Assembly (NCBI GenBank): GCA_964639795.1
Contig: CAZXFE010000001.1
Span: 1-61,477, forward strand
Length of the DNA: 61,477 nt
Origin: an uncultured Enterobacteriaceae bacterium
GTDB taxonomy: Bacteria > Desulfobacterota > Binatia > Bin18
Direction: 5' to 3'
The notes under the pieces: generated by a model
Told to the model about the DNA's origin: nothing
Seen by the model: only the letters and a program-made list of their open reading frames with translations
Databases searched by the model: none
Part shown: positions 1 to 61,477 of the stretch, piece after piece
How the letters are laid out: every line of letters begins with the position of its first letter
Numbering within the stretch: the stretch's first letter is position 1
Made by a program: the position numbers and the translations under genes

Positions 1-79
1 CTACAATGCAGGCGGGCCAGAATGCCTCACTCAAAAAACATTCGGTCACACACAGGAGGAGGGCGGTTTTACGAAGCGC

Positions 80-766
80 TTATTGTAGATCGAGGCTAGA
101 AGATTTTTCTAAAGCCACTTTGCCTTTCCGCACGAAATCCTGGCCAACAATGCCGGACGAAACAATGAACTTGAAGGCTTCTTCTACTGTGTAGTCAACT
201 TCAACCACCTCTTCGGGCGGAACCATGACGAGAAATCCCGACGTTGGATTCGGTGTGGTTGGAACAAATACTGAAAGAATCTGTGGGACAGATACGAGAC
301 CCAACGCATCGTCTCGTTCCGCCGCAACCAGGCCCATCACCCACATGCCTTTGCGCGGATACTGAAGCAAGACCACTCGCTGAAAGCTGCTGGACGGACC
401 TTGGAAGGTTTCTACCATTTGTTTGACCGCACTATACACGCTGCTGATCAGTGGCAAGCGCAGAATCATAATGTTGACCGCCTCAAGTACCTGCCGCCCG
501 ATAAAATTCGTTCCAACCAAGCCCAAAAGGAAGATAATGGCCAGTGCCAGGAAGATATTCACGAATGGCGTGATCGGCTCAAGCCACCAAAAACGCTCCA
601 GTCCGAGCGACCCAAACAGCGCTTTCATGACCGGCGCACCAGCGCCGCTCAGCAAGTCAAACAGAAAGGACACCAGCAGATACGTAGCGACCAGCGGGAT
701 AAGAATGAGGAGTCCAGTAAGCAATGTGTTGCGCAAGAAACGCGATTTCGTCCTTTTTCGCTTCAA
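80..766 (-). CDS. DUF502-family integral membrane protein
   Basis: 228-aa ORF. Basic N-terminus, then TM helices (LLTGLLILIPLVATYLLVSFLF, PFVNIFLALAIIFLLGLVG) and a soluble C-terminal part, as in DUF502 proteins. Confidence 0.75.
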   Translation of the reverse strand: MKRKRTKSRFLRNTLLTGLLILIPLVATYLLVSFLFDLLSGAGAPVMKALFGSLGLERFWWLEPITPFVNIFLALAIIFLLGLVGTNFIGRQVLEAVNIMILRLPLISSVYSAVKQMVETFQGPSSSFQRVVLLQYPRKGMWVMGLVAAERDDALGLVSVPQILSVFVPTTPNPTSGFLVMVPPEEVVEVDYTVEEAFKFIVSSGIVGQDFVRKGKVALEKSSSLDLQ

Positions 767-874
767 AACGAAACCTCCCGAGACCTTGGTAATACAGCGA
801 TACTCATCACTGCAGATGGTAAAGCAACAGCCTAGGGTTTAGCAAGAAAAGAACCGAGTCCCGCTAGACCTAAC

Positions 875-1231
875 TTACACCTCAAGGATCTGAAGGCCGG
901 TCTGACACAGACACGCAGCGCTAAATGGCTTGGAGAATATGTGGACATCGGGGTGCTGACGCAGCTCTACCGAGGGATCGAAGAAAGCGGAGATAAGAAT
1001 TATTTTGCCGTGGGGATCGGTCTGTTTGATTTTATCAGCCAGCTCAATGCCTGACATGGATGGTATACGCACATCGGAGTTACACAGGTCATACCGTTGA
1101 CGACAGACCCGCTGATAAGCCTCCTAGCCATCTGTTTTCTGCTCGACTTGAAGCCCTTCTGCTTGGAACATCTCAGCTAGGATTTGGCAAAAGGTCACGT
1201 CATCAACAACAAATAAGATGTCTCGAATCAC
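875..1231 (-). pseudogene. CheY-like single-domain response regulator with one in-frame TAG
   Basis: GGAGG followed by a GTG start. Reads VIRDILFVVDDVTFCQILAEMFQAEGLQVEQKTDG-TAG-EAYQRV..YDLCNSDVRIPSMSGIELADKIKQ..ILISAF..FSKPF. The acidic DD pair, acceptor D, S and K are all present. TAG is at 1124-1126. Confidence 0.75.
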
Positions 1232-1320
1232 GTCTGTGAGCCTCCGGGAAAAGCACTTGCAGCAACGGACGGTTGCGAGAGAAAGGTTTGGCTGCGGAGT
1301 CGGCCCGACGGCGGCGATCT

Positions 1321-1796
1321 TTAATTTATCTTTCGCAGAAGACCGATCAAGCCGGCAACCGACTTGAAGGGACAGATATTATAGCGGCCCGGTGCCAAGT
1401 GGCGAAAAATCCTTACCAAAAGGGCGAAAACATCGTAAGGTTTGCCTGGAAAGGCCAATATCTTAGGCGTATATATTGGAGAGAGGGGCTCATGTCTCAT
1501 GTAAGTTGCGCGGCTGCTATCCTCGATCCTTGCGGCACTATCATTGCGTGCTCTGCGTGTGGGGGAGGGCTCTATACATGGTAACCCCGGCCTCAACAGC
1601 TGAGATTATCTTTGCAGAGGATTCCGTGCTTATCCGTTTGAATCACACTATCCCAGAGCGTAACGTCAGGGGTCCTTTCCTGTGTCCTCGGTGTAACCAG
1701 AATACCTGGGAGGGAAATCGAGTCCATACACTCAGGCATGGTTGGTATGATCCGTATTTTGCGGAGTAATTCAGAGAGACTATCTCGGGGCTCCAC
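1321..1796 (-). pseudogene. second receiver-domain remnant, frameshifted and degenerate
   Basis: Two overlapping minus-strand ORFs in different frames carry receiver-like pieces: IIPTMPECMDSISL resembles D-x-x-MP-x-MDG, and AFPGKPYDVFALLVRIFRHL resembles the KPF helix-5 region. Confidence 0.3.
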
Positions 1797-2606
1797 AACT
1801 GTTCATAAGCTAACCTAAATCAAACAGCATAATTAATTTGAACTACTTATATTCAATTTTATCCCCAGTTTCCCAATACAAACCACGCAGTGTAATTCAC
1901 GGCGAACCAAACCGCCTTTTGCCAAACGGTACCCGCGACTGCTTGAGACCGATGATAGGAATATGCGGCCACACGCCGGAGACAGGGTTTGATCCGCACC
2001 TAGTTATCAGCTTGTCCGCATAAGAATTCTATGGAAGTTTTCAAAAATAACACTATTGGGGATTTATACACGTGCGAAAAGGGAGGCCTTGAATGCCTAT
2101 TAACGAGAGGGGAAAGCCGCGCCTGCTTTCACTCTGGAAAACGAATTTGGCGCGAAAATTTCACTAAAAGACTTCTAGGATTCTCACACTAGGTTTGTCA
2201 GAAAACATAAGCTCAATTTTATGTTGCTCAGCGATCCAACAATGCAAGTAACGGCAAAGTCGGTGTATATGGAGAAAAGACGATGTACGGAAGGAAGACG
2301 GTAGGCGTTATTCGATCAACAGTCTGGATAGGCCCTAGCGGCAAAATAAAAAACACTGGAAACGCGTGAATAAAGCAGCCAAAGTTCATCAGGTGCTGCG
2401 CCAAGGCTGACGCCTGATGCAACCGTAGGCGGAGAACGATAGGATGACAACGAAAGAACACATAAGGCCTCTAGATAAGGCGGATCGGACGTGTGATGTG
2501 AACGTCAACGGAGAGCCGGTTGTCACCGTAGAGTTCGTTGAATCTCCACAGGGGACGATAGTCATGCTACGCTCCAAAACGGAGGGCATGGGAGGCTACC
2601 AGGACA

Positions 2607-7695: not shown

Positions 7696-8428
7696 CTACC
7701 CAATCTGCAGGTGCGAGTTTATCCACTGTCCTACAGTCTCTGCCAACTCGTCATATACTTCCTGATCCGTTCGACCTGAACGTTTGAGTAAATGAAAAGA
7801 GTGGTCTCCACCGTCAACAATATGTAATGTAGCTAGCTTCTCCAGGCGGCGACACAGCGGTCTGATAAGGTCGAGTTCGCCAGGAGCATCTCTGATTCCC
7901 TACATGGAAAGCACCGGCACCTTCACTTCGGCGGTGTTCGCCTCGGTCGCTTGAAGGCTTGCGTGCAGAGTGAAGCGGAAAGCCGAAGAAGACGAGACCT
8001 TTGACCCGAGGAATACGGCCTTCTGCGGCGACAAGTGAGGTCATCCGCCCGCCCATGGACTTGCCCCCCGCCAGTATAGGCAGATCACCTACAGTTTTCG
8101 TAGCAATCTCAACTGCAGACCAGATCGTGTCGAGTAGCGTCGCCCGGGAGTCCGGCCTTTTTTTTACCCTTTTCCACATATGGAAACTGATATCGAAATG
8201 TGGCCACCCCTCGTATTGCAAGCAGGTCTGCCATGGTTTGCATAAACGGGTGCCGCATTCCTGCACCCGCACCGTGCCCAAAAACGAGTTATGTGTGGGC
8301 TTCTCCCATTCCGGTCTCTTGTCCTGGCGCTGCCAGACTGACTTCGAAAGAATAGTCCGCGCCTGCTTGTACGCTGTAAATCGTCCGCGTAGCCCTGAGT
8401 GCGTTATAGTCTTACGAATTGCAGACAA
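7696..8428 (-). pseudogene. alpha/beta hydrolase (dienelactone hydrolase / KANL3-Tex30-like) with two frameshifts and one TAG
   Basis: Pieces in two frames: FGHGAGAGMRHPFMQTMADLLAIRGVATFRYQFPY.EKGKK / RPDSRATLLDTIW..LAGGKSMGGRMTS..FFGFPLH / VKVPVLSM-TAG-GIRDAPG..IVDGGDHSFH. The frameshifts are at an A8 run (8158-8165) and a 5-nt run (8280-8284). TAG is at 7900-7902. Confidence 0.7.
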
Positions 8429-8434
8429 GACATA

Positions 8435-8638: not shown

Positions 8639-9031
8639 AGTGGCCTATTCCTTGGTAGATTAAATCATACGATACGATACGATGAACGTAGCGGGGATCT
8701 GCAGGCTAAGGAGGAGAGTCCACAGATCCCCGACGGGTCACCGTGACCGTGCGGGGCCAGTGTATAGAAAATTGAGGAACTCTCGTCGCTTACAGTAATG
8801 CCTCATTGGATGCCAGCACGAGCGAGCCACGGGAAGATTAGAGTCGGGAAGCATTGTCACTTATCCGAAGACCCGCTACTTTTCGTGTACGGCGATGCAC
8901 TGAACGCTATTTCATGCTCATCATCTAGCTGCTTGGCCACTGCTCGCCTCAGCCAGCTCCTGGAGAGCCGTATAGACGTCCTGATTACCAAACTGCCACA
9001 TCCAATTGTTAGCTCACGGATCGGGAAATTC

Positions 9032-9415
9032 ATGCGCATCTCAATCGTTATCATTCTCGTACTGCTCTCCTTTGCAATCCAGGCCCACGCCCTAGTGCTG
9101 TGTACAAACACAAAAGCGGCGGGTCCTCTGCTACCGCAGGAGGCATGTAATGACAAGGAAGTCATGATCGATCCGGCTGATATAGGGCTCGATGGGAATT
9201 TAGTCCTGTATGATTCACACGGAGCTCAGGTAGGTACGGTCCAAGGCTTTGGTGGCTGGGGTACAACCGACAATCAAGCTCTTGTAGCCTTCGAGGCGAA
9301 GGGACAGATCTTTTTTGCTGTATTCGCCCGGTCTACCTCTGATCATGCCCTGGGCCTCTGTCTTTCGAAGAACCGGTTCTGTTGGAAATATGATGCGTTA
9401 CCGAACAAACCATGA
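9032..9415 (+). CDS. hypothetical secreted protein (127 aa)
   Basis: Internal ATG of track ORF 8798..9415, followed by a signal-peptide-like MRISIVIILVLLSFAIQAHA. No family recognised. Confidence 0.45.
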   Translation: MRISIVIILVLLSFAIQAHALVLCTNTKAAGPLLPQEACNDKEVMIDPADIGLDGNLVLYDSHGAQVGTVQGFGGWGTTDNQALVAFEAKGQIFFAVFARSTSDHALGLCLSKNRFCWKYDALPNKP

Positions 9416-11450: not shown

Positions 11451-11669
11451 GGAATCCTCATCAGAGTAGTACGACTAATTTTACGTTGTCTGTTACAGAA
11501 GAGTCTAGTGGCTGCGAGTTGGGATTATGGAGCGCAATCAAGGAAGTGGGGGCAGCCTCGCTCACGTAATATCGCAAAGGGTACAACTCTTAGTCGGCCG
11601 CGTAAGGAGCTTCAATCAACTCAAAAAGAACTCGCGCGGAAACTGAGGGAAGGAGGAGAATGATAACCC

Positions 11670-12157
11670 ATGGGCAAACGATTCTCCCACCCCTTACACT
11701 CCGGAGGAGTCGTGAACTGTACCACAATTGATGTTTCCACTGACGGAGCCTGCAAGCGGAATCCGGGCCCAGCGGGGGCCGGGATTGTTATTCCCCTTCC
11801 TCCGGGGCGAAGGCATCACATCAGTCGATATCTCGACCACTACACGAATAATCAGACAGAGCTAATAGCGGTAAGAATAGCCTTGGAAACTCTCCTTGAC
11901 GATTACCAGGAAAAGCACATTGCTATCTACACGGACAGCCAGCTTGTTATAGGCCGGTTGCATAAAGGCTGGAAAGTGAACACGAACAGAGAATACTAAT
12001 AACCGAGACCAAACGCCTCCTGCCCCGCTTTTTCCTCGTTTCATTTGTGAAGGTCAAGGGCCACAGCGGCAATGTCTTCAATGAGGAAGCGGATAAGTTG
12101 GCTCAAGGGGCCGCTCTGCAGGTAGAGGCAAATACCTGGCCAGATCAAGTTGTGTAA
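11670..12157 (+). pseudogene. rnhA: ribonuclease HI with a 1-nt frameshift
   Basis: Frame 1 reads DGACKRNPGPAGAGIVI..TNNQTELIAVRIALE..IAIYTDSQLVIGRLHKGWKVNTNRE, then a stop. The remainder (LITETKRLL..VSFVKVKGHSGNVFNEEADKLA) continues in the -1 frame from about 11995. Confidence 0.75.
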
Positions 12158-12445
12158 AAAGAGGCGGGGGGGCTACGTGGGGGATAGATCCGGGAAACGA
12201 TCTGATAATCGTATCAAACTTTTTACCAAAAGTCAAATAGACTCGAAAGTATTTGATATTATTAATATTATTATTCAACCTGCAGGTTGCAAGTTTCAGG
12301 TTCGGTGGAACAATAGCCCTTCCCCCAAATCAGTTGGCGCCGCGGGGAAAACATGCGAAAGGGTGGAACACCTTTCCGAAGAGGTGATTCACTGGGTGTC
12401 CGGTCAGTTTGCTCTTAACCTTGAAGAGCTGTTCCTATCGAGTTC

Positions 12446-12664
12446 TTATCCGCGGCCAGTGACTTGACCGCCAAAACAAGAAAATACTCCCCCTGCATCT
12501 TCCGCAATTGTTGCCGATGCTCCGGTCACTTTGCTGAACTTTTCGCCAGACATAAGGGCCAGGTCGATTTGCTCCGCACTGGCGTTGATTCTAACTGTCT
12601 GTTTGATCGCCATGATGGATTGCCTCCTAACCACATCGGAACGCGCGTTTACCGCATGGACCAA
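12446..12664 (-). pseudogene. SRPBCC / AHSA1-like fragment, truncated
   Basis: 72-aa ORF (IKQTVRINASAEQIDLALMSGEKFSKVTGASATIAEDAGGVFSCFGGQVTGR) matching the N-terminal half of the family. The downstream sequence is not readable in any single frame. Confidence 0.4.
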
Positions 12665-12908
12665 TCCCGAAGAACTGAAAAATGGTGGGGACCGAAAGGC
12701 ATACGTTGCCTTTCGGTTGAGGTTGAGTTACGCGTTAGCCGGGGGCAGTACAGGATCGAGTACTATTATGTCTGATAATAGAAATTTGGTTGCGTTTCGA
12801 ATTTCACTTCCCCCTTGCAGCCTTAATCCGCATCCCTCTCAATTCCATTCATTTCGTCGAGTTTGAGATCCTCGACGGAATTCTGGCGAGAAAAGGATCA
12901 TTCCGACA

Positions 12909-13259
12909 CTAGAGAAGCTCTAGAAGCTTTTCCGACGGCCTTGCTAACACGGCGCGCTTTCCCGACAGTACTACCGGTCGTTGCATTAGCTCCGGATGCT
13001 TGCGCAGGATCTTAACCACCGACCCAGGACCCGTGTAGTTTTTTTCATCAAGGCCGAGTTCACGAAACCGCTTGTCTTTCCGGACTAAGTCGGCGGGCGG
13101 ATCAGTCACTGCGTTCAGGATAGCCAAGAGATCTGATACCGACGGCGGGGTCTTGATATATTCTATAACGTCGAACTCGACGCCGCGCTCCTTGAGTAAT
13201 TTGAGCGCTTTGCGCGATTGTCCTCATGTCGATTTATGATAGAGAATGACAGGCTTCAT
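12909..13259 (-). CDS. ArsC-family (glutaredoxin-type) reductase, probable selenoprotein
   Basis: MKPVILYHKST-TGA-GQSRKALKLLKERGVEFDVIEYIKTPPSVSDLLAIL..LVRKDKRFRELGL..HPELMQRPVVL..ARPSEKLLELL aligns along its length with ArsC. The TGA (13224-13226) is codon 12, the position of catalytic Cys12 in E. coli ArsC (YHNPACGTSR). Confidence 0.75.
13185..13208 (-). other. candidate SECIS-like hairpin for the ArsC-family gene
   Basis: GCGCUC-N12-GAGCGC stem starting 16 nt after the UGA. Not a canonical fdhF-type loop. Confidence 0.25.
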
Positions 13260-13594
13260 GAAGCATTTTCTCCTTCCGAGTCGGGCAACGTAACATGTAG
13301 AGGATAGGGCTACCAGAGCGGTGAACTCTGGCGGTAATCCCCAAGGGGAATGTTTTTCTCTTGACATAAGGTACGTTTGAACTCGTCTTCACAGTGTGTC
13401 GTGCACGTATAGATGTCGACTTAGATGTATCAAAAATGGAGTACACCGCCGATGACGCTGGAGTGGATTGGGGCAACGATGTGGCTTCTGAGAGATACGA
13501 GCTATACGTCGACGAAGCCACCCCAACTCAACTCGAATTCACACACCTTGCATTGGCATTGCCCGGGGAGAATTCATCGGAATAGGGAGCATTC

Positions 13595-13651
13595 ATGGGG
13601 CGAGACGCTGAGATCCGCGCGGATCTGGACCTCCAATGGGTAGAAGACTAA
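13595..13651 (+). pseudogene. member B of the small-ORF family, cut by TAA after 18 codons
   Basis: AGGGAG lies 5 nt upstream. Reads MGRDAEIRADLDLQWVED-TAA. The same frame stays open afterwards apart from one TGA, up to about 13885. Confidence 0.35.
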
Positions 13652-14283
13652 CTCGGCGAGCGACTTCGTTGGAAACAGATTTCTCCTTTCGATTACGAGG
13701 CGCCGGTCACATATGCCGACGTGACTTATCGACTCCTTCTCCATTGCTCTGATAACGTGTGATACGGCTACATAATGACACTAACTCTCAAATTGGAGCC
13801 GCGGATGACTCCCGAACTCCTTGCGGGTCATTTTCAGCGGTTTGCCGAGGACAAATTAGCCACCGCAGAAGCAACGCTGGCTAAGCTCTTTTCTGAACTC
13901 GTGACGAAGGCTTTCATCTAGCGAACCGCTTCACGGTTATTATAGACAAGATCGGTACCCCACAGGTGGTCTCCCTTATTCAAGATCAATTAAGCCCGTT
14001 TGATCCCGAAAATATCGAGTGGTTTAAACCGGTCCCACTGCGTAGCGACGTCCCTTACCATGGCGAATGCAGCGGCCCGGGCCGGCTTGGCTCTCGGCAT
14101 ATCAAACAGTATCGCCTACGCTGCAGCATTAACCCCCACCTCTCATGACCCTACTAGGAAGAGTTCCACATACGGCGAGCCCAACCTGGCGGTTGACAGC
14201 CGGCGGCGCTACCCCCAGGAATTAGCGATCTTTGAAGATGCGCACGAACTCCTCGTGTGGCTGGCCGGGCGCTGAGGGGTTCC

Positions 14284-14305
14284 TATATTACTCGCGAGCA
14301 ATATA
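14284..14305. promoter_or_regulatory. 22-bp near-perfect palindrome abutting the Shine-Dalgarno of the lexA leader ORF
   Basis: TATATTACTCGCGAGCAATATA, with 10 of 11 arm positions complementary. Confidence 0.4.
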
Positions 14306-14314
14306 GGAGGTGCG

Positions 14315-14374
14315 ATGGGGGCGATGGGTTTCGCTTGCATAGTATACATTTGTATAGTATACATTTGTATATGA
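14315..14374 (+). CDS. 19-codon upstream ORF overlapping the lexA start (ATGA)
   Basis: AGGAGG, 4 nt, then ATG. Encodes MGAMGFACIVYICIVYICI. Its TGA overlaps the lexA ATG, and lexA has no Shine-Dalgarno of its own. Confidence 0.35.
   Translation: MGAMGFACIVYICIVYICI
14336..14370. promoter_or_regulatory. candidate LexA operators: tandem 15-bp unit AGTATACATTTGTAT x2 forming interleaved palindromes
   Basis: TG(C/T)ATAGTATACA at 14336-14348 and 14351-14363, and ATACATTTGTAT at 14344-14355 and 14359-14370. Overlaps a possible TTGCAT-N17-TATACA promoter and ends at the lexA ATG. Confidence 0.5.
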
Positions 14375-14970
14375 AAGACGCCCTCACAGCTCAACAGGAG
14401 CGTATTTTTGATTTTCTTGCTGATTCTGTAACAAGCCGTGGTGTCGTGCCGACGTTGCGCGAAGTTGCGAGTCATTTCGATGTTAATCACAGTGCTATTC
14501 GAGGGCATCTTCAGGCTCTAGAGAAAAAAGGGTTTGTTCAACGGGGGCGTGGCGCTCGCAATATAGAGATCCTTCGTCCAACCCGTTCTGCCCCCTCCAA
14601 CAGCATCCCTATACTTGGCAAGGTTTCGGCCGGTACCCCTATTCTCGCTGTCGAAAATATAGAGGAATACGTTCAGATCGATCCCTCTATCCTTGGGAGC
14701 GGCGATTTCGGTCTTCGAGTACAGGGCGATAGTATGTCGGGCGCGGGGATTCTGGATGGTGATGTCGTTATTGTTAAACAACAAGAGACTTCTGATTTAG
14801 GCTGTATTGTGGTGGCACTTCTTGGTGATGAAGTGACGGTAAAACGTCTGCAAAAGAATGGGGACCAGGTGTATCTCACGCCTGAAAACACGGCCTATCG
14901 CCCCATATTGTGTGACGAAAATACCAAAGTGATTGGGCAGGTGGTGAGTCTACTCAGAAAACTCAAATAA
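14371..14970 (+). CDS. lexA: LexA repressor
   Basis: 199 aa from the internal ATG. N-terminal winged HTH (VPTLREVASHFDVNHSAIRGHLQALEKKGFV), an Ala-Gly cleavage site (VSAG), and the S24 Ser/Lys dyad (GDSM .. VKRL). Confidence 0.9.
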   Translation: MKDALTAQQERIFDFLADSVTSRGVVPTLREVASHFDVNHSAIRGHLQALEKKGFVQRGRGARNIEILRPTRSAPSNSIPILGKVSAGTPILAVENIEEYVQIDPSILGSGDFGLRVQGDSMSGAGILDGDVVIVKQQETSDLGCIVVALLGDEVTVKRLQKNGDQVYLTPENTAYRPILCDENTKVIGQVVSLLRKLK

Positions 14971-14999
14971 ATGATTTTTTCAAACCTGGCATTGGAGTC

Positions 15000-15617
15000 A
15001 TGGCTCAAACCACCGCTACCTCCTCTCTTATCCCGTTTCGGCCTGCGTCTTCTGTTCCAAGACACGACTGGGGCCTTGAGGCTCTCCATGGCCGTCTTGT
15101 CGAGTTATCAGGGGTCGGAAACACCGCAGCCTTAACCATTACGGCCGGCCTGATTTATGAAGCCCAGGAGAACGACGAACCTGTTGCCTGGGTTACACAC
15201 AGAGACAGCTTATTTTTCCCCCCCGATTTTGACGCGAGGGGGATAGATCTTGCTGCCCTTCCGATCATCCGTGTACCGGCAGTATTTCATAGTCTAAAAG
15301 CCACAGACATCTTACTGCGATCTGGTGCGTTCGGACTTATTGTTGTCGATATAGGCGCAAATATAGACATCCGCTTGGCTATACAGACACGGCTTGCTGG
15401 ACTAGCGCGCCATCATCATTCCGCTGTGGTCCTTATTACCGAAAAGAAGAAAGCCGCAGCTACAGCTGGATCCCTGGTTTCAGTGCGAGTTGAGTCACAT
15501 TCTCACCGTATAGAGTTCGACCGCTATACGTGCACTATAGAGGCGATCAAAGACAAACAAGTAGGACCTGGGTGGTCACATAGCGAGGAACACTGTGGAC
15601 CGCTGGGCCTGTCTTAA
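15000..15617 (+). CDS. imuA: ImuA-like (RecA/SulA-fold) translesion synthesis accessory protein
   Basis: 205 aa located between lexA and imuB. RecA-like core without an obvious Walker A motif. Overlaps imuB by 23 nt. Confidence 0.75.
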   Translation: MAQTTATSSLIPFRPASSVPRHDWGLEALHGRLVELSGVGNTAALTITAGLIYEAQENDEPVAWVTHRDSLFFPPDFDARGIDLAALPIIRVPAVFHSLKATDILLRSGAFGLIVVDIGANIDIRLAIQTRLAGLARHHHSAVVLITEKKKAAATAGSLVSVRVESHSHRIEFDRYTCTIEAIKDKQVGPGWSHSEEHCGPLGLS

Positions 15618-17079
15618 CCTTCGGGAGTTCCCACTCCAACTACTTTTGCAACGCTATCCCAAGTGGACTTCCTCCCCCGTTGCCGTAGTGGAGAACGATA
15701 GTCCCAACGGTAAAGTCACTTACGCTAATGAAATTGCTCGAAAACAAGGGGTCATACCGGGTCTTCGCTATGCATCGGCACTAGCCCTTGAGCCACAATT
15801 GCGGGCTGCCCCGATGCCGAGAGAGGTCATAGAGGCCACGATTCGCCATATCATTACAGCGCTGCAAGAGTTTACCCCTGATGTTGAACCCCATTCCCAA
15901 GAATCAGGGATCTTGTGGCTCAATGCGAGCGGACTGCAAAAGCTTTTTCGGTCAATAGAGGAGTGGGCCCGCCGGATCGGGCGGAGATTAACACGAGCGG
16001 GGTATAAGTCAGTTGTCGTCGCCGGCTATACGCGGTTTGGAACTTACGCGCTTGCCAAGAGCGTTCCGGCTGGAGTGCACGTTCTCTCTGACCCCGTTCA
16101 AGAGGGATCAGCAGCGCAAAAAGTTCTTCTTCGCGATCTCGGTCTTTCGCCACGGCTTCTTGGTAATTTAGAGAAACTTGGACTGGAAAGCTTAAAGGAT
16201 TTTCTAAAAATACCCTCAGCCGGGTTTTTGGAGAGATTCGGTCCGGAGGCACACCATCTTCATCAATTGGCCTCTCGCGCAAAGTGGAATCCCATACGGC
16301 CACAAATGCATATGGAGCCCATCCAGAGTAATGTTATTCTCGATTATCCTGAATCAGACACCAATCGGTTAATATTCATAGTCAAAAACGAACTGGCGCC
16401 TATGCTCTTCTCACTGGCAGCGAGGTGTAGATCCCTTGCGGCGATCACCCTGACATTGAAACTTGATTCGAAAGAAACCAAACAAGAAACCCTTAGACCC
16501 GCCAGCCCTACCCTCAACGAACGCCAGATTGTGGACCTTATACGTCTACGTTTTGAGGCTATGACGCTAGCCAGCGGAGTTATCGAAGTTGGCCTTGTAG
16601 CTGATGACGTAGAGGCCACCAGCGAACAACTGCGACTATTTGACCAGATCGCAACACGCAATCTAATAGACGCGAACGACGCGCTGGCTCGCATCCGTGC
16701 GGCCTATAATGAGAAAACTGTTGTCTCCACCGCCCTTCATGAAGGACACCTACCGGAGGCTCAATTTAAGGTCACCTCTCTTCCTTACCTCAGGCACGCG
16801 CACTGCAGGTATGTCAAAATGACGCCTTTGGTTCGCCGATTCAACGTTCGCCCTGAGCCGTTCATAGACCCACAACGGCTGGGAGACCGTGACACGTTTA
16901 TTCGGGGGATGGAGTTGGGAACTCTGCAACGCATGGTCGGGCCTGACACCATATCCGGTAGCTGGTGGAACCGCGAAGTGCAGCGAGACTACTTCTATAC
17001 CGAAACGAGTCTAGGAACTTTTTGGTTATATTATGATCGCATCCGACGTCGGTGGCGACTACACGGCAAGGTCGAATAA
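15595..17079 (+). CDS. imuB: ImuB, Y-family polymerase-like protein
   Basis: 494 aa, GTG start. Y-family palm/fingers-like N-terminal half. Canonical position upstream of dnaE2. Confidence 0.85.
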   Translation: MDRWACLNLREFPLQLLLQRYPKWTSSPVAVVENDSPNGKVTYANEIARKQGVIPGLRYASALALEPQLRAAPMPREVIEATIRHIITALQEFTPDVEPHSQESGILWLNASGLQKLFRSIEEWARRIGRRLTRAGYKSVVVAGYTRFGTYALAKSVPAGVHVLSDPVQEGSAAQKVLLRDLGLSPRLLGNLEKLGLESLKDFLKIPSAGFLERFGPEAHHLHQLASRAKWNPIRPQMHMEPIQSNVILDYPESDTNRLIFIVKNELAPMLFSLAARCRSLAAITLTLKLDSKETKQETLRPASPTLNERQIVDLIRLRFEAMTLASGVIEVGLVADDVEATSEQLRLFDQIATRNLIDANDALARIRAAYNEKTVVSTALHEGHLPEAQFKVTSLPYLRHAHCRYVKMTPLVRRFNVRPEPFIDPQRLGDRDTFIRGMELGTLQRMVGPDTISGSWWNREVQRDYFYTETSLGTFWLYYDRIRRRWRLHGKVE

Positions 17080-17082
17080 TCA

Positions 17083-20166: not shown

Positions 20167-20900
20167 ATGCTTTTATCGGTCCTCTGCTGCCAATCGGATG
20201 ACGTCGAGGAATTCACCTGAGCATATTCAACCAACCACTTGTGGAGCGGCAACATTGCCTTGTAGTGCGTATTACACCACTTCGTGAAAGCGGGCGTGGC
20301 AATCTCTTCCGGCAGGGAAGTCTCCACAGAGACGTAGAGGCTCTTGTGTTTGAGGAGGTGCGCACGAGAATGCTCGTCCGTATAGCCGCGAGGTACCTTC
20401 TTGTAATGCTGACCCCCGAGTTTGTAGCCTTTGCGAGCGAGGCGCGTGGTAATAAGTGCCAGAGCTTTTCCCGCCGCGTCATCGTCAACCGCATCGCGGT
20501 ACCGAGCTAAGCCCATTTTGTCTAACGTGTAGATGCCTGCAGCAAGCAAGACCTGCTCGGGTTGCAAGCGGAAAAAGAATCCGGAGCAGCCCCAATGCTT
20601 CTCAGCGCCATGGTAGAACCAGAGATCGAGATGAGTTTTGTACGGCGTCTTATCGTGGGAGAAGCGGATGTCCCGGTTGATACGGAATAAGCTCTTGTTG
20701 ACGCGGGGGTTTGCAGTGATAGTCGCGTCCAGTTTCTTGAGCTTTGGGCGTATCGCAGTGACGAAGCGCCGAGCGGTTTCCATATAGTACATCTCATAAT
20801 CCACTCGATGGGCTTCGAACCAGGCTTTGGTATTGTACTGGCTGAGGTTCTGCAGAAACGTGAGCGTCTCCTGCGGAAAGCCCGTAAAATCTGTCTCCAT
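20160..20900 (-). CDS. DUF2461 (TIGR02453) family protein
   Basis: 246 aa from METDFTGFPQETLTFLQNLSQYNTKAWFEAHR.., including RINRDIRFSHDKTPYKTHL. Convergent with dnaE2 and overlaps it by 7 nt. Confidence 0.8.
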   Translation of the reverse strand: METDFTGFPQETLTFLQNLSQYNTKAWFEAHRVDYEMYYMETARRFVTAIRPKLKKLDATITANPRVNKSLFRINRDIRFSHDKTPYKTHLDLWFYHGAEKHWGCSGFFFRLQPEQVLLAAGIYTLDKMGLARYRDAVDDDAAGKALALITTRLARKGYKLGGQHYKKVPRGYTDEHSRAHLLKHKSLYVSVETSLPEEIATPAFTKWCNTHYKAMLPLHKWLVEYAQVNSSTSSDWQQRTDKSIQ

Positions 20901-24515: not shown

Positions 24516-24599
24516 TATGGCCAAACAACGATGATTGGCCGTTTGGGTCTGTTTTGCAGAAGAGTTCCGTGCGCAGTTACATTCGTTCTTGATTGTGGT

Positions 24600-46178: not shown

Positions 46179-46478
46179 TTGACAAACTAGTTTTTATATT
46201 GCATAGTAAGTGCTCGGAATACCTTGTTGTTAGGCCTGCTATGCTACCCATAAGAAAAATCACCAAAAACTTATTGAAGCCTACTTCTACTATTCTCCCA
46301 TTCGGAGGCGAAAAGGAGAAAACGACCCCACCGTCCAAGTTGAACGGTCCCTCATCGAAGCATCGATCCCAACATATGTCCAGCAACCGAGGAAAGATGC
46401 GGCTGAAACAGGGACAAAGCGGAGGAGCTAAAGGGCCGCTGCAATAGAGCAAGAAGTTCGCTTAAGGAAACAGGTTTC

Positions 46479-46961
46479 ATGTTTGATCGCATTCTTGACA
46501 TGACAGTAGGGCGAAGGCGTCTCCTTTATGGGGGATACTGCGCGTATACACAAGAATATGCACAAGAAGCAGAAAATGAGCCAGTTTTCTATACTGCTGC
46601 AGAAAAGCGTGACCCATTCCTATCTGCGTTTTACACTGCTCAAAAACAAGTGGTCGTAAGGGAAGCAAAAACGCCGCTCCAACTCTTTGACCTCAGCCAG
46701 CTCAAGGTTGTTGGAATTATATCGGAAACCTGCCAGCCAAAGGCATTAATTGAGGACAGTAGCGGACTCGACTACATCGTAGAAGCCGGAACGCTCATCG
46801 GTTCCAACGGTGGTGGCATCAAGTTAGTTGAAGCAAGACGGATCGTCGCCGAAGAGTTCGAGACAGACTTTTACGACAAACGAGAGGTTAAGCAGCGAGA
46901 GCTTGACCTCATGATTGTGAACTCAACCCCCAATGGTGGTGGGACGAACGGAAAGAAATAA
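46479..46961 (+). CDS. pilP: PilP-like pilus assembly protein (no signal peptide seen)
   Basis: 160 aa. EKRDPF.., LQLFDLSQLKVVGII..PKALIEDSSGLDYIVEAGTLIG. Immediately upstream of pilQ. Confidence 0.55.
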   Translation: MFDRILDMTVGRRRLLYGGYCAYTQEYAQEAENEPVFYTAAEKRDPFLSAFYTAQKQVVVREAKTPLQLFDLSQLKVVGIISETCQPKALIEDSSGLDYIVEAGTLIGSNGGGIKLVEARRIVAEEFETDFYDKREVKQRELDLMIVNSTPNGGGTNGKK

Positions 46962-49159: not shown

Positions 49160-50099
49160 GAGACTTTAGAGAAGGCGGCCACGATCTTTCTGATGGAGAT
49201 GGTGGTGGAAGAATCGGAAAACCTAGAGGCCTAAGAGCTCAACGGTGGTGGGGTTGAAGATGTGAGGGAGCTCTTAGACCTGTAGGTTTCTCATAGATCA
49301 GGAGGAAGTTGAGAAGAGAGTAAAAAGCGCTAAAAGGTCGAGACACTCGGAGGCTTGGACGCCAATTGCGGCCATGCGGATGTTGTGGGGTGGTGGAAGC
49401 GAGGGACAGATCTCTTTGGTTCCGAGCTTCCGAGCGTCTCTATCAGGGTGGGGTAAAGTGGTGTGGTGGTGGTGGACATGGAGAGACGAATATAGGGGCG
49501 GAGATTTACCCCATCCGCCCCTATACACTCAGACACCAGCGATTGAAAGCCGGGAGGAGAGGGAGGAGGATGCACAGGGGGGCAGGCAGCGGATTGTGAA
49601 AGGTCATCTACATGTTACGTCTTTTTCTGATGATAAAGACGAGAATATTGCCGTTACGCGTCCGAGTCATGCCGACCTCAAATGTGAAGAAGCTGAAGTT
49701 TCCCCGGTGCGGTTGGCTTATGGGGAAGCGGAGAAGAAAATAATTGCCCTTACTGATCAGCGTAAAAAGCAGGGCAACACGTTGGGTGGGGTGGTGGAGG
49801 TGGCGGCAACAGGGTTGCCGCCAGGGCTGGGGAGTTTTGTTCAGTGGGACCGCAGGCTTGATGGGCGGCTCGGCTCGGCGCTCTTAAGCTTGCAGTCGGC
49901 GAAGGAAGTGGTGGTGGGGTGAGGGTTTGACACTGCAAAACTCTCCGGCTCGTAGGTGGATGACGAGATGGTCTCCAACCATAATACAGGCTTCATTCGC
50001 CAAAGCAACAATTCCGGCGGAACTGAGGGAGGAATGAGTGCCGGTGAACCTTTGCGCGTCATTGAACATGTGAGACAATTCTCATGGCCTCCCTTTTGA
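49160..50099 (+). pseudogene. aroC: chorismate synthase remnant (many stops, 3' truncated)
   Basis: GGETLEKAATIFL.. resembles AGESHG-x-A-x-T. Also RPSHADL, GNTLGGVVEVAATGLPPGLGSFVQWDRRLDGRL, VVG-TGA-GFDTAKLSGS-TAG-VDDE, NNSGGTEGGMSAGEPLRV. The last ~100 codons or so are missing, and the frame runs into the aroK start. Confidence 0.75.
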
Positions 50100-50620
50100 T
50101 ACGCAACATCATCCTAACTGGTTTTATGGGAACAGGAAAAAGTGTCGTTGGGAAACGTCTTGCCAAACAACTCAGACGCCGATTCATTGATACAGACACT
50201 CTTATCGAACAAGAAGCGGGCATATCGATCGTCCAGATCTTTGCGGCAGAAGGGGAGCCGGCTTTCAGAAAAAGGGAAAGACAGGCAATCGTACATCTTT
50301 GTCAAGAGGAAAACGTAGTGGTTGCCACGGGTGGTGGAACGGTCTTGGATGCGGGAAATGCGAGGATGCTGGAAGAGAGCGGCCTCGTCATCTGTCTCAC
50401 TGCACGACCAGAGGTTATACTCCAGCGTCTCCACGGCAATACTACATCACGCCCGCTTTTACAGGGGCCAAACCCGCTCGAAAAGATACAGAATCTGATG
50501 GCGGATCGGGCTGATGCATATGCAAAAGCCAACCTCAGCATAGATACTTCGTATTTAGACCCGGATGCTGTTGTAGAGGCAGCGTTGGTAGCACTGTCCG
50601 AAAAGAGCCGCGCGACGTAG
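50084..50620 (+). CDS. aroK: shikimate kinase
   Basis: 178 aa. GFMGTGKSVVGKRLA, FIDTD, VVATGGG. Confidence 0.9.
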   Translation: MASLLIRNIILTGFMGTGKSVVGKRLAKQLRRRFIDTDTLIEQEAGISIVQIFAAEGEPAFRKRERQAIVHLCQEENVVVATGGGTVLDAGNARMLEESGLVICLTARPEVILQRLHGNTTSRPLLQGPNPLEKIQNLMADRADAYAKANLSIDTSYLDPDAVVEAALVALSEKSRAT

Positions 50621-51705: not shown

Positions 51706-51805
51706 AGTGTGTGTTGGGAAGGACGGTTGCAATGGTTTCTGGTGCTACTCGCGCTGATACGTGGGGCTTGTGGCAATCGAGGAGATAACGACAAAGAAGT
51801 ATCAT

Positions 51806-51889
51806 TTCGCTAAATCGGTATATTCCAGTGAGATCGTACGTCTCTGTTAAGAGGAAAACATAGTGGTGGCCACGGGCCGTGGAACCGAC
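51806..51889 (+). pseudogene. short duplicated aroK fragment
   Basis: FAKSVYSSEIVRLC-TAA-EENIVVATGRGT compared with aroK FRKRERQAIVHLCQEENVVVATGGGT. About 40 nt are near-identical to 50305-50343. Confidence 0.6.
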
Positions 51890-51992
51890 AGGAGGATCAG
51901 TGTCTTGCTTGTAGCGTAGCTGCGGCGGTTCGGGTGGCGGAGCTTCCAATTCAGGCTCACAGTTTGTTTTTGAGGCGCGCGGATGACTGAGT

Positions 51993-53413
51993 TTGTACGT
52001 TGGAGTGGACATCACCAAACCCACGGTCTTAACCCTCACGGCGACACTGCTCGATTCTCAAGGGTTTCCCTTCCGCGACGCGCAGTTGACCTTCGCTGCC
52101 GATTTCGGCGATATCACGATCATTCAGAAAGATGCGCACCGGAGTATCTGCAATCCAATAACTTGTTCGAATCGCGGAGCTGCTATCACGGACGACAATG
52201 GAGAGGCGCATGTCACAGTTATTGCCGGTCTCACCACCGGCTAGACACGGATCATTGTTGCCGCTCCTCCTGCGTTGAACATTTCTACTGGCGTCACGGT
52301 CACCATTACCGGACAAGGCTTCATCTCGCTCGGAACCCTGAGTGTTGATCCGTCTGCCGTCACTTTTGTGAATCCCGTTCTTGGACCTGACGATCCAGGC
52401 TCTCCATCGACAATAGCCGTGTTACAGGCGCTAGGCGGCACTCCGGCGTTTAGGGGGGATCACGGCAATCAAGATTTAGGCACAATTGCAGCGACTGGCA
52501 TTCCAAATGTAAATGAAACGGCTGAGTACACCTTGACCGGCGCTATCCCTACAGCTACTGCGCCAACGGCGCTGCAAGATACGGTTACGCTGTATGACCC
52601 TGAGGGAAGCCAAGCCTCTGCAACGGTGAACGTCGTCTTTGCCGGTTGTACACTTATGGCCGACCAAACCAACGGTCACGCTTCCGAATGTGCCGGGGAA
52701 AGGCTTTCGGCTTGACGTCAGCGATGGTGTGCCGCCGTTTGCTGTGACGCAGCTATTCCCAGACACTGCAACGGCATCGGCGATTGACGTATTGGCTCAA
52801 GTCATCGTTGCAAACGGCAATGTCATCTCCGGCGAAACATGCGACGCAACAGGTGAACGGTGGTTCATCACCTTTACTTTACCTACCGATTTTCGGACAG
52901 TAATCCCTGGTACAGTCCGCATACGTGACGTCTGCGGTTGTAAGGCAACAATACAACTCACCATACGAACCGTGCGCGAACGGAGTCATTGATAATGGGA
53001 TGGAGTGTGATGGAACGGACTTCCCTGCGGGGCTCAGTAACTGTGGAAATGTAGTAGGAACGCCGTTCTTGGGAGTCCTCTTTTGCACGGATACATGCAC
53101 GATTGATAACAGGAACTGTCAGGTTCCTCCTGCTACTCCAGCAACAGCAGCATCTTCGTCGTGTAAGAAAGGGATTATTGACCCAGGTGAATTGTGTGAC
53201 ATAAACGATTTTGGCAGTCTTACTTGCGCGAGTCATGAAGGAGCGGGGGCGACAGGCTCTTTATTCTGCACTGATAGCTGCGCCATAGATACTAGTTATT
53301 GTGAGGCCGCTCTCGCATCAAAACCAATTTCTCCGTGTGGTAACGGAAGCATTGATCCAAGTGAGCAGTGTGACACTCTCAGCCTTGGTGGGGGACTACA
53401 TGCCCATCATTGA
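51993..53413 (+). pseudogene. large surface protein (Ig-like domains plus cysteine-rich CGNG repeats) broken by a TAG and two frameshifts
   Basis: Four consecutive track ORFs in frames 0, 0, +1 and +2. TAG is at 52245-52247. The C-terminal repeats are PCANGVIDNGMECDG.., SCKKGIIDPGELCD.., PCGNGSIDPSEQCD... A possible signal peptide lies at 51727. Confidence 0.6.
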
Positions 53414-59126: not shown

Positions 59127-59144
59127 TAAAAGGGGAAAGACGTA

Positions 59145-59924
59145 ATGACTGCTGTTGAAACCCAAGGATTAACGATTGAAGAGGCGGTTGCTTCTGCTCT
59201 CGCCCAACTTCATGCAGAACGACATCAGGTTGAGATCGAAATCATCGCCCAGGCGACCAAAGGATTTCTTGGTATTGGTAGGAAAAAGGCACGGGTCCGG
59301 GCAACACTCCGCAGTTCCCTCGCCCCTCAGGAGTTGGAACCTGAATCAACGACCCTAGATCCTTCGGAACAGCCTACTCGACGCCGTTCCATCTCCTCGG
59401 CATCAGATGCTCAACCTGCTCCAGTCTCCAAAGAGACTGGAGAAAAGGCGTGCCAGGCCCTCACAGAAACCCTGCGTCTTATGGGTATGGAAGTGCCGGT
59501 TTCGCTAGATGTCCAAGGGGCAGAAGCTGTTATCAACATAGACGACACCGTAGGTGGCTTGCTCATCGGTCGAAAAGGTCAAACGCTCGATGCGCTCGAA
59601 TATTTGCTCAACCGTGTGGTCGCACGGGGTGATGAAGAAGAGGCGCATCTCGTCCTGGATGCAGAAGGCTACCGAGAACGGCGTCGGCAGAGCCTCGAAA
59701 GTTTAGCCCTTCGCTTGGGAGAGCGGGCAAAACGCCGCAGGAAAACTGTGACCTTAAATCCGCTCAGTCCTCGTGATCGGCGCGTTGTGCATTTAGTTCT
59801 TGAAGACGACCCACTTGTCAACACCAGAAGTGTAGGGCGTGGGTATCTTCGGCGTCTCTCCATTGTTCCGGAGAACGGCGGTACTATCCGCCGCGAGCGG
59901 CCGCGAAGCGCTGCCCGCTCGTAA
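59145..59924 (+). CDS. jag: Jag/KhpB-like RNA-binding protein (Jag_N, KH, R3H)
   Basis: 259 aa. Jag N-terminal domain, a KH-like GGLLIGRKGQTLDALEYL, and an R3H motif (RRVVHLVLEDDPLVNTRSVG). Confidence 0.85.
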   Translation: MTAVETQGLTIEEAVASALAQLHAERHQVEIEIIAQATKGFLGIGRKKARVRATLRSSLAPQELEPESTTLDPSEQPTRRRSISSASDAQPAPVSKETGEKACQALTETLRLMGMEVPVSLDVQGAEAVINIDDTVGGLLIGRKGQTLDALEYLLNRVVARGDEEEAHLVLDAEGYRERRRQSLESLALRLGERAKRRRKTVTLNPLSPRDRRVVHLVLEDDPLVNTRSVGRGYLRRLSIVPENGGTIRRERPRSAARS

Positions 59925-59942
59925 TCTCTATAGCGAGGAGTC

Positions 59943-61361
59943 GTGTACGAACATGACACGATCGCAGCTATTGCCACTCCCCCAGGGCGAGGTGGAATTG
60001 CCATTATCAGAATCAGTGGCGCTCGTTCAGAAACCGTAATAAAAACACTGTTTCTACCCGATACGGCCTGGATAGAGCAGCATTCACACCACTTCTACCT
60101 CGGTAGGATTCTCGATAAGCCATACGGAACGCCAATTGATCAAGGGGCGATCATCCTTATGCGTGCCCCCAAAAGCTACACCTGTGAGAATACGGTGGAG
60201 GTGCACCTCCACGGCGGCAACTTTCTGACCCGTCGTGTATTGGAGTCTATTCTGTGCCAAGGCGTTCGCCTAGCTGAACCAGGAGAGTTTACCAAGCGAG
60301 CCTTTCTCAACGGACGCTTGGACCTAGCGCAGGCCGAGGCAGTTTTGGACCTCATTCAGGCTACAAATGAGACAGCGTTACACCTAGCCTGGGAGCACTT
60401 AGCCGGTCGACTGTCATACGCATGTGATGAAATTCGGGACAAGCTCCTCACACTGACTGCGCACCTCGAAGCCTTAATCGATTTTCCTGAAGAAGACATT
60501 CCTGAAAACAGCCAAGAGGATATGCAGAACGAACTAGCCAAAATTCGGGGTGATTTAGAAGCCTTAAAAGCGACATTCTCACAGGGCAAAATTTACCGAG
60601 ATGGAGTCCGAACTGCTATCGTTGGTAAACCCAATGTGGGAAAGTCAAGTTTGCTCAACATCCTAACAGGAACAGAACGGGCCATTGTTACAAAAGTCCC
60701 TGGCACAACTCGAGACATTCTTGAAGAAACAGTTCTCGTAAACGATATTCCTCTTGTGCTATGGGATACTGCGGGTATTCGACGCACAACGGACGAGGTT
60801 GAACAGATTGGCATTGAGCGCGCGCTGGCCGGGATCGAGCAGGCCGAGCTGATCCTTGCGGTTTTTGACGCTGCCCAACCGTTTGACACAAGTGATGCAA
60901 TGATTTGTGAAAAGCTCAGAGGGGAAAAGTGCATCCTCGTGGTCAACAAGAGCGATCTTCCTCAAGAACTTGATCCAGCTGACGTAATAAGCCGTATCGA
61001 TCAAGAACCTCTTATCCATATTTCTGCCAAATACGGGACCGGCATGAAAGATTTAGGAGAGCGAATCCAGAATGTTATCCTTGGAGACGGGATAGACCTG
61101 TTGGATGAGAAGAAAGGTGCCATGGGCAATAACGACGTTTTTAGTTATCCATTCATTACGAAAATGCGTCATCAAAGTGCGCTTGTGAAGACAACTCAAA
61201 GTCTTGAAAATGCAGAGTTTAGCCTTAAAGACGGCGTTCCTCTCGACCTCGTCGCTGTTGATCTACACACAAGCCTCGATCATATTGGAGAGATAACCGG
61301 ACACGTGAGTAGCGAAGATATCCTTGATCGCGTGTTCCGAGACTTTTGCATTGGCAAGTAG
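59943..61361 (+). CDS. mnmE: tRNA modification GTPase MnmE
   Basis: 472 aa. DTIAAIATPPGRGGIAIIRISG, GKPNVGKSSLLN, DTAGIR, C-terminal FCIGK. Confidence 0.95.
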   Translation: MYEHDTIAAIATPPGRGGIAIIRISGARSETVIKTLFLPDTAWIEQHSHHFYLGRILDKPYGTPIDQGAIILMRAPKSYTCENTVEVHLHGGNFLTRRVLESILCQGVRLAEPGEFTKRAFLNGRLDLAQAEAVLDLIQATNETALHLAWEHLAGRLSYACDEIRDKLLTLTAHLEALIDFPEEDIPENSQEDMQNELAKIRGDLEALKATFSQGKIYRDGVRTAIVGKPNVGKSSLLNILTGTERAIVTKVPGTTRDILEETVLVNDIPLVLWDTAGIRRTTDEVEQIGIERALAGIEQAELILAVFDAAQPFDTSDAMICEKLRGEKCILVVNKSDLPQELDPADVISRIDQEPLIHISAKYGTGMKDLGERIQNVILGDGIDLLDEKKGAMGNNDVFSYPFITKMRHQSALVKTTQSLENAEFSLKDGVPLDLVAVDLHTSLDHIGEITGHVSSEDILDRVFRDFCIGK

Positions 61362-61382
61362 CACGGAAGATAGTAGGGGTAT

Positions 61383-61477
61383 ATGGACTACGACGTTATA
61401 GTTGTCGGGGCGGGACATGCCGGAATAGAGGCCGCTCTTTCTGCTGCACGACTAGGTAGCAAAACCCTAATGCTCAC
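61383..61477 (+). CDS. mnmG: tRNA uridine 5-carboxymethylaminomethyl modification enzyme MnmG (5' end only)
   Basis: [31 protein letters not shown]. Runs off the window end. Confidence 0.9.

Follow-up and report, generated by a model that had tools for sequence, protein, structure and literature searches.

Evidence for long-running gene decay in an uncultured marine bacterium related to Candidatus Binatia

Genomes rich in pseudogenes are textbook markers of recent host restriction or of bottlenecks, and Mycobacterium leprae, Sodalis glossinidius, the Sitophilus symbiont SOPE, Shigella, and Yersinia pestis are pseudogene-rich bacteria that became restricted to their niches recently. To our knowledge, almost all known genomes of this kind belong to pathogens or animal symbionts. 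Here we analysed a stretch of 61,477 nt (positions 1 to 61,477 of contig CAZXFE010000001.1, GenBank assembly GCA_964639795.1, which make up the entire contig; hereafter, the window) from an uncultured marine bacterium related to Candidatus Binatia. An initial annotation, made from the sequence alone, had proposed that the window carries a high load of broken but still recognisable genes. Alignments across the lesions now show at least 13 such loci, and our analysis indicates that they are very probably the product of real, long-running gene decay. Genome erosion is a known phenomenon; the lineage in which it occurs here is new and ecologically unexpected.

In the niche-restricted pathogens and symbionts, at least a quarter of the loci are disrupted, the coding fraction is approximately 50-65%, lesions are lineage-specific, and essential genes remain under selection; the window is like them in these respects. 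It is unlike them in that there is no expansion of insertion sequence (IS) elements in its 61 kb, its repair genes have been kept and are clustered, and its dead DNA shows no drift towards AT. It is also unlike them in having been sampled from open-ocean plankton with no known host, and in having a relative represented by a 7.09-Mb contig. Trichodesmium erythraeum is similarly pelagic and marine, with approximately 60-65% coding DNA and non-coding DNA that is conserved across strains; however, its non-coding DNA consists largely of repeats, introns, and transcribed elements, whereas the identifiable part here consists mostly of decayed protein genes. General literature searches on marine pseudogene-rich metagenome-assembled genomes (MAGs) and on Binatota returned nothing specific. 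The named homologs of AroB come from 'Candidatus Binatia', 'Thermodesulfobacteriota', and 'Deltaproteobacteria' MAGs, and the closest UvrB proteins among the GTDB representatives belong to one MAG of the Syntrophobacteraceae (65%) and one of the Binataceae (63%); no similarity of the window to E. coli was found.

Gene remnants in the window

Intact long open reading frames (ORFs) make up 64.6% of the window, which has a GC content of 51.4%; by gene calls, the compact relatives L113, L196, and L197 are 83-89% coding. The gaps between genes were translated in six frames, stops were masked, and the translations were searched against Pfam. The window carries approximately 20 in-frame stops, two of which are probable selenocysteine TGA codons, and at least 13 loci are gene remnants in which a profile or a full-length homolog aligns across stops, frameshifts, or deletions. 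Approximately 25-30% of the loci are disrupted, and about one third of the window is broken or dead DNA. The 7.5 kb to the left of the window also carry fragments, namely those of AAA_lid_14 (114 aa), AsnC (86 aa), and SnoaL_4 (61 aa) genes. The remnants in the window, several of them weak, are as follows.

875-1378, minus strand: response-regulator receiver pseudogene; in-frame TAG at 1124-1126; PF00072 positions 1-106 of 111 aligned across the stop (E=9e-16)
2095-2320, plus strand: weak remnant of a Bcp/AhpC-TSA peroxiredoxin gene, catalytic segment deleted; PF00578 68-116 of 124 (E=0.0014, under the curated cut-off)
7696-8294, minus strand: Abhydrolase_11 alpha/beta hydrolase pseudogene; two frameshifts, the first in an A8 run; TAG at 7900-7902
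11670-12157, plus strand: rnhA (RNase HI) pseudogene; +2-nt insertion near 11993; PF00075 6-89 and 114-139 in different frames
22034-22410, plus strand: AHSA1/SRPBCC pseudogene; frameshift near 22150; stops TGA 22088, TAG 22243, and TGA 22249
24594-24746, minus strand: weak N-terminal remnant of a PA0069-family radical SAM gene within the orphan ORF 24213-25154; NF033668 1-51 of 348 (E=3e-4, far under the cut-off)
29699-30294, minus strand: RibD_C/dihydrofolate-reductase-family pseudogene; 1-nt insertion near 30252 (after 'THDGV'); TAG at 29993-29995; PF01872 35-191 of 197 aligned across the stop
34242-34712, minus strand: conserved hypothetical gene of 155 aa; TAA at 34485-34487
38898-39386, plus strand: conserved hypothetical gene of 162 aa; two in-frame TAGs, at 39018-39020 and 39198-39200
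46306-46961, plus strand: type IV pilus deletion scars; pilN C-terminal remnant (46306-46428) and pilO'-'pilP fusion ORF (46479-46961)
49614-50060, plus strand: wreck of aroC (chorismate synthase); TGA 49920 and TAG 49953; PF01264 156-269 of 327 (E=5e-29)
51724-51972, plus strand: faint remnant, after aroB, of a gene that encodes 216 aa in the outgroup L197; stops at 51811 and 51829; tblastn of the L197 protein, 30% over 83 aa (E=1e-6)
51960-53410, plus strand: Big_1/invasin-like surface-protein pseudogene; TAG at 52242-52244 and frameshift near 52655

The stop codons named in the initial annotation were present at, or no more than 3 nt from, the positions given there; those at 1124, 7900, and 29993 lie on the minus strand, and those at 39198 and 49953 on the plus strand. 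The codons placed at 52245 and 34482 are the TAG at 52242-52244 and the TAA at 34485-34487, respectively, and the stop expected at about 51849 could not be verified, the stops in the weak remnant there being at 51811 and 51829. The TAG at 39018, the AHSA1 gene, the deletion of pilM, pilN, and pilO, and the bcp and PA0069 radical SAM remnants had been missed.

The TAG at 1124 in the receiver gene is present in four contigs from four samples, and the 60-aa ORF that encodes the receiver tail occurs on seven contigs. The tail of strain L110 has diverged by 21% and has lost the KPF motif, whereas the adjoining DUF502 gene is only 0.3% diverged. The hydrolase profile PF20408 matches in three pieces (positions 3-47, 50-122, and 121-193) in three frames, the last of which crosses the TAG at 7900; the predicted shift in the A8 run and the second frameshift, a 1-nt loss, could both be read at the junctions. 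An 80-aa fragment ORF of the hydrolase recurs in NCBI, Logan, and ENA. A PDB search with the hydrolase gave a marginal match only, from which no ancestral residue was assignable at TAG 7900. In the bcp remnant, the AhpC-TSA match lies near 2170-2316 and an N-terminal 'APAFTLENEFGAKISLKDF' motif was recognised by eye.

The frameshift predicted in rnhA exists, but it is an insertion of 2 nt rather than a change of 1 nt, as judged against the intact 150-aa gene of the sister lineage L127 (UvrC 94% identical). The insertion is common to the window and the JGI strain L087 (98% identity); the resulting 109-aa ORF occurs on three contigs, and its cluster adds five 109-aa and two 95-aa variants. In L127 (positions 1-2900, compared with 11451-20993 of the window), rnhA adjoins an inverted DUF2461 gene and an S24-peptidase fragment, and the lexA-imuA-imuB-dnaE2 cassette that separates rnhA from DUF2461 in the window is absent; close relatives therefore differ by rearrangement or deletion. 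In the AHSA1 gene, PF08327 positions 2-37 and 35-122 fall in two frames, and four contigs from four samples cover the locus. At codon 22243 of this already frameshifted gene, a single sample (L091) has TGG, whereas the window shares TAG with three other contigs.

The shift expected near 30252 in the RibD_C-like gene was found as a 1-nt insertion. When healed, the product matches PDB 8jsv end to end, and the six closest homologs all have W at the position of the TAG at 29993; the healed sequence carries substitutions at residues that are invariant among these six. The nearest intact homolog, P0177, is only 75% identical and is probably the copy of a sister lineage; an 85-aa fragment of the window gene occurs on five contigs. 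For the 155-aa hypothetical gene, the full-length homolog P0324 matches both halves at 78% identity, with Q in place of the stop, and the 55-aa tail ORF was found on 12 contigs from five sources (NCBI, MGnify, JGI, Logan, and ENA). The 162-aa gene has 27 homologs, the top 15 listed being 149-163 aa long with 66-79% identity and 99-100% query coverage. The position of its first TAG (39018) is E in the six full-length homologs aligned, that of the second (39198) is Q in all seven aligned homologs, including the truncated P0317, and the gene is intact on the contig of the sister lineage L112 (P0300).

The window has lost pilM and the larger part of both pilN and pilO, whereas L112 carries an intact pilMNOPQ cluster between priA and aroK; by tblastn, residues 176-216 of L112 PilN and residues 1-22 of L112 PilO match the scars. 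The aroC wreck reported earlier was borne out, since the PF01264 match is the only part of the gene detected. The surviving part corresponds to residues 89-112 and 170-304 of the intact 386-aa AroC of L197, with 63.7% identity over 135 aa, and matches the chorismate synthases in the PDB at E=1e-32; its 182-aa ORF recurs in NCBI, Logan, ENA, and JGI. Because the remnant is still 63.7% identical to L197 AroC, aroC died much later than the lineages split. L112, L113, and L196 have lost the gene as well, suggesting parallel loss in these lineages; the lost copy was perhaps redundant.

The stretch at 51724-51972 is hypervariable, with indels between strains, and contains a weak lipoprotein remnant. 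In the adjoining surface-protein gene, intact L197 Big_1 protein aligns at 53.6% identity in frame 3 (residues 34-253) and at 43.5% in frame 1 (residues 249-351). Two frameshifts had been predicted in this gene in addition to a stop; the TAG at 52242 and the frameshift near 52655 were borne out, while the second frameshift could not be verified, and a further frame change precedes the Cys-rich tail. The ortholog in L112 is fragmented as well.

Independent assemblies, constraint, and the age of the decay

Strain contigs were fetched through exact identity to seven query proteins of the window, and the recurrence of lesions was judged on assembled contigs and by exact look-ups of truncated ORFs. 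The sources were Tara Oceans (PRJEB1787 runs; TARA_SAMEA2620882 and TARA_SAMEA2622048), two JGI metagenomes, the SANC23 sample, several other ENA assemblies, and three Logan run assemblies, two of which contain window DNA. Contigs from at least 15 ocean metagenome samples cover positions 1-61477 at 95.7-100% identity, every contig junction is bridged by independent contigs, and no contig repairs any lesion. The lesions at 1124, 11993, approximately 22150, and 39198 are each present in two to four different samples, and truncated ORF products recur exactly in NCBI, Logan, ENA, JGI, and MGnify. The lesions are real, and they have reached fixation or come close to it in a natural population sampled around the globe.

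Differences between strains are concentrated in the lesion-bearing DNA. All 11 unique indels lie outside intact coding sequences, and unique substitutions are 2.4-fold more frequent outside intact genes than inside them (7.6 versus 3.1 per kb; binomial P=8e-14). Within intact genes, 80 synonymous and 45 non-synonymous differences give a ratio of non-synonymous to synonymous polymorphism (pN/pS) of 0.18. Relaxed constraint was also seen in the replacement of invariant RibD_C residues and in the loss of the KPF motif from the L110 receiver. The indel and substitution results agree with the initial proposal that these loci are once-functional genes under relaxed selection.

Comparison with sister lineages bears on the age of the lesions. 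L112 (AroB 82% identical) is equally decayed, with approximately 66% of its DNA in substantial gene calls, but other genes are hit: rlmD is a 91-aa fragment and pgeF is split into 58 and 117 aa, while it retains pilMNO and the 162-aa gene in intact form. Only fragments of the aroC and surface-protein genes are left in either the window or L112. L113, L196, and L197 (AroB 73-76%) are compact, and both aroC and the Big_1 gene are still intact in L197. Lesion ages thus range from the polymorphic TGG/TAG codon at 22243 to remnants that are shared or paralleled in lineages whose AroB proteins are 76-82% identical. The decay had been described as recent, which fits the polymorphic codon but not the old remnants. 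These results show that the decay is ongoing, of mixed age, and clade-wide, and not a single recent event.

AroB proteins at least 90% identical to that of the window occur on contigs of 759 kb and 7.09 Mb (P0122 and P0124), and the presence of members of this cluster on a 7.09-Mb contig points to a large genome. A compact cluster with 76%-identical AroB was found on 4.1-Mb contigs (P0168 and P0171).

Several observations weigh against long-running decay as the explanation of the window. The contrast in substitution rates is partly ascertained, since contigs were fetched by exact protein identity, a choice that favours conservation in the seven query genes; this bias does not bear in the same way on the indels or on genes outside the query set. 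Some flanks are approximately 20% diverged beside genes that are less than 1% diverged. The hydrolase, RibD_C, aroC, and surface-protein lesions are spanned in DNA by one other assembly (ERZ23486814), which possibly shares reads with the source; additional support comes from the recurrence of truncated ORFs for the hydrolase, RibD_C, and aroC, and from the equally fragmented L112 genes for aroC and the surface protein. The stretches at 13.4-13.9, 21.0-22.0, 23.4-24.2, and 34.7-36.8 kb could be ordinary non-coding DNA. Finally, the lack of IS elements and the equal GC content of dead and live DNA are unlike classic early symbiont erosion.

The diverged flanks are distributed as a mosaic. Divergence of 8-21% was observed at window positions 854-1000 relative to L110, 51722-51877 relative to L082 and L083, and 50442-50620 relative to L082; approximately 150 nt after aroB are approximately 20% diverged, and two strains carry an insertion of 17-18 nt after aroB. 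The sharpness of this mosaic indicates recombination among diverged lineages, beyond neutral drift alone.

The decay is best explained as follows. Purifying selection has very probably been lost on genes that became dispensable, which served signalling, peroxide and other accessory metabolism, and the type IV pilus, or encoded RNase HI, an adhesin, and one copy of chorismate synthase; these genes gather nonsense mutations, small indels, and internal deletions. Dead DNA is probably removed only slowly, so that remnants of very different ages coexist and make up approximately one third of the sequence, while effective selection persists on the genes that the cell continues to require (aroK/aroB and those for DNA repair, translation, and membrane insertion). 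The ecological cause may be a change of niche, an association with a host, or a small effective population size, and we infer that the same density of lesions extends genome-wide.

Alternative explanations and in-frame TGA codons

A more specific explanation is that selection was relaxed by recent host restriction, the organism being a symbiont of a sponge, a protist, or another marine host. The proportion of broken loci and the kinds of genes lost (pilus, adhesin, receiver signalling, and a step in aromatic amino-acid synthesis) do resemble those of host-restricted bacteria, and the related contig L195 encodes ankyrin-repeat and TIR/SLATT proteins. However, the contigs were recovered from the prokaryote size fraction of Tara and from other open-ocean metagenomes, the pN/pS of 0.18 indicates efficient selection on the retained genes, and the 7.09-Mb contig in the same 90% AroB cluster speaks for a large genome. 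Among the features by which symbiont genome reduction is recognised, a high pseudogene fraction with low coding density is found here, whereas proliferation of IS elements, loss of repair genes, a raised ratio of non-synonymous to synonymous substitution rates (dN/dS), and AT drift are not; no transposase-like ORFs or IS elements were detected among the ORFs and Pfam matches of the window. We therefore regard recent host restriction as possible but doubtful.

The initial annotation had also suggested a mutator episode, in which repair was lost or down-regulated and the lesions arose in a burst with a bias from G:C to A:T. Six of the eight stops that could be polarised are indeed C-to-T or G-to-A changes (TGG to TAG in two cases, CAG to TAG in two or three, and CAA to TAA), rnhA is broken, and the GC content of the decayed lineages is 51%, compared with 61-64% in the compact L113 and L196. 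The direction of the transitions is uninformative because the genetic code allows only G:C to A:T transitions (in CAA, CAG, CGA, and TGG) to make stops, and the remaining two stops, TAG 39018 (from GAG) and TGA 49920 (from a Leu or Asp codon), require transversions. GC content is 51.9% in intact coding sequences, 51.9% in recognisable pseudogenes, and 50.4% in the rest, so that dead DNA does not differ from live DNA; the GC content of the window is below that of L113 and L196 and similar to that of the outgroup L197, which has only 53.5%. Furthermore, lhr, uvrC, lexA, imuA, imuB, dnaE2, fpg, two xth genes, uvrB, polA, tag, and priA are intact and constrained, leaving rnhA as the only broken repair gene, and the wide range of lesion ages and the differences among sister lineages are unlike a single burst. 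A mutator episode is thus improbable. The accompanying claim that translation, envelope, and repair genes are intact holds for the most part, with rnhA and pilMNO(P) as exceptions.

Window positions 2607-46178 pack 12-13 genes for repair, damage tolerance, and replication restart, namely lhr, uvrC, (rnhA), lexA-imuA-imuB-dnaE2, DUF2461, fpg, xthA, uvrB, a second xth, polA, tag, and priA. No comparable clustering around uvrB or uvrC was found in approximately 160 other genomes and metagenome loci.

Two further in-frame stops have a different character.

12912-13262, minus strand: ArsC/Spx-family gene, probable selenoprotein; TGA at 13224-13226 at the catalytic Cys position; PF03960 1-78 of 79 aligned across the TGA
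39483-40028, minus strand: UGSC-family gene, probable selenoprotein; TGA at 39744-39746 at the U position; PF24696 2-170 of 172 aligned across the TGA (E=3e-43)

Both ORFs are intact apart from the TGA, which in the ArsC-like gene stands in the context YHKST-TGA-GQSRKA, and gene callers split both genes. A hairpin downstream of the ArsC-like TGA is marginal (z=-1.9 versus shuffles), and a small hairpin approximately 15 nt downstream of the UGSC TGA is not significant (z=-0.3 versus shuffles). As in known selenoprotein recoding (UGSC proteins of PF24696, and ArsC-like proteins in marine and deltaproteobacterial genomes), the two TGAs occupy the U or Cys position of otherwise intact genes, so they are probably selenocysteine codons and not lesions, judging from sequence. 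The organism therefore likely has the selenocysteine machinery, with its sel genes located beyond the window. The other TAG, TAA, and TGA stops, unlike these, stand at W, Q, E, and L positions in frameshifted genes.

This recoding raises the question of whether the broken genes could be functional in a similar way, through suppression or reassignment of TAG or TAA (pyrrolysine, for example) or through programmed frameshifting; the commonest lesion is an in-frame TAG. However, the 35 intact ORFs end in TAA (17), TGA (10), and TAG (8), which shows that no codon has been reassigned. The residues replaced by in-frame stops are W, Q, Q, Q, and E for TAG, Q for TAA, and L or D (W, by eye) for TGA, and thus of no single type, and the same genes bear frameshifts, internal deletions, and changed invariant residues. 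In addition, the broken regions tolerate indels between strains, and the TAG that is polymorphic with TGG lies in a gene that was already frameshifted. General recoding of the broken genes is accordingly very unlikely.

Finally, it is hardly credible that the genes are intact in the organism and the lesions merely assembly or consensus errors, as had also been suggested, or products of a chimeric contig: one frameshift does lie within an A8 homopolymer and four loci are directly covered by a single other assembly, but contigs from independent Tara, JGI, Logan, MGnify, and ENA assemblies tile the window unrepaired, truncated ORFs recur among them, and the excess of inter-strain substitutions and indels in lesion-bearing DNA, with indels avoiding intact genes, is not expected from errors.

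Other features of the window and significance for the lineage

Two further features are not part of the set of recognisable remnants.

49205-49535, plus strand: conserved leader that resembles structured RNA and has three helices; lies upstream of the aroC remnant and does not belong to the decay
13370-13918, plus strand: ORF-like stretch with stops TAG 13583, TAA 13649, and TGA 13760; no Pfam, NCBIfam, or PHROGs match

The leader was found in five lineages, namely the window, L112 (8735-9060), L113 (262-625), L196 (4745-5075), and L197 (2885-3215), whose coding DNA is only approximately 70% identical. It sits between pilQ (or priA) and aroC or aroK, and the L197 copy lies upstream of the intact aroC. 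Twelve of its 52 pairs show compensatory double changes, and 95.8% of the cells are paired compared with 30-51% with slid partners (0 of 500 shuffles). The G·U pairs fit the plus strand only, and the loops are rich in GGUGG. The leader has no match in Rfam, and tRNA and Rfam scans of the window gave no matches. From covariation among these sequences, it resembles a structured leader, so far undescribed, that belongs to the aroC-aroK-aroB operon and has survived the death of aroC. A short Trp-rich ORF overlaps the leader in L113 and L196, which raises the hypothesis of an attenuator with a leader peptide; the frame is unconserved in the window, L112, and L197.

Stretches of unrecognised ancestry were left out of the pseudogene count, together with the orphan ORFs. 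Pfam, NCBIfam, and PHROGs gave nothing for 13370-13918, 26363-26835, 21.5-22.0 kb, 23.4-24.1 kb, and 34.7-36.8 kb, nor for the orphan ORFs 8798-9415, 36831-37367, and 37380-37736. A deep wreck had been placed at 34.7-36.4 kb; nothing recognisable was found there, and the TAA at 26473 could be an ordinary terminator. An 89-aa ORF fragment at 26026-26292 (plus strand) has no family match and carries a 'PDVRDGLNRKERMVLWVL' motif that resembles the N-terminal motif of GyrA and ParC. A minus-strand stretch at 12449-12727 appeared AHSA1-like by eye; its score is under the Pfam threshold, so it is not claimed. The only repeat pair found in the window is an 81-nt direct repeat with 84% identity (35912-35992 and 38723-38803), the second copy of which follows directly on the stop codon of tag and precedes the broken 162-aa gene; the repeat may represent a small element or the duplication of a 5' region.

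Automated annotation of MAGs of this kind would miscount genes, split ORFs, and over-predict metabolism, as with aroC and the pilus, which are dead while their neighbours look fine; the two probable selenoprotein genes would be miscalled as broken. A tentative and rather unlikely extension of gene decay in this lineage is that it is cosmopolitan, apparently free-living, pelagic, and large in genome, and that it carries a stable load of dead genes amounting to one third of its DNA, persisting over long evolutionary times and renewed independently in sister lineages, with efficient selection on the retained genes, a complete repair machinery, and no host restriction, IS bloom, or mutator. If true, deletion bias would have to be unusually weak in this open-ocean bacterium, or its population structured in a way that has gone unrecognised. 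The decayed and compact sister lineages, together with the polymorphic and fixed lesions, form a natural set for dating gene loss, for estimating deletion bias in the ocean, and for addressing the question of a hidden host.

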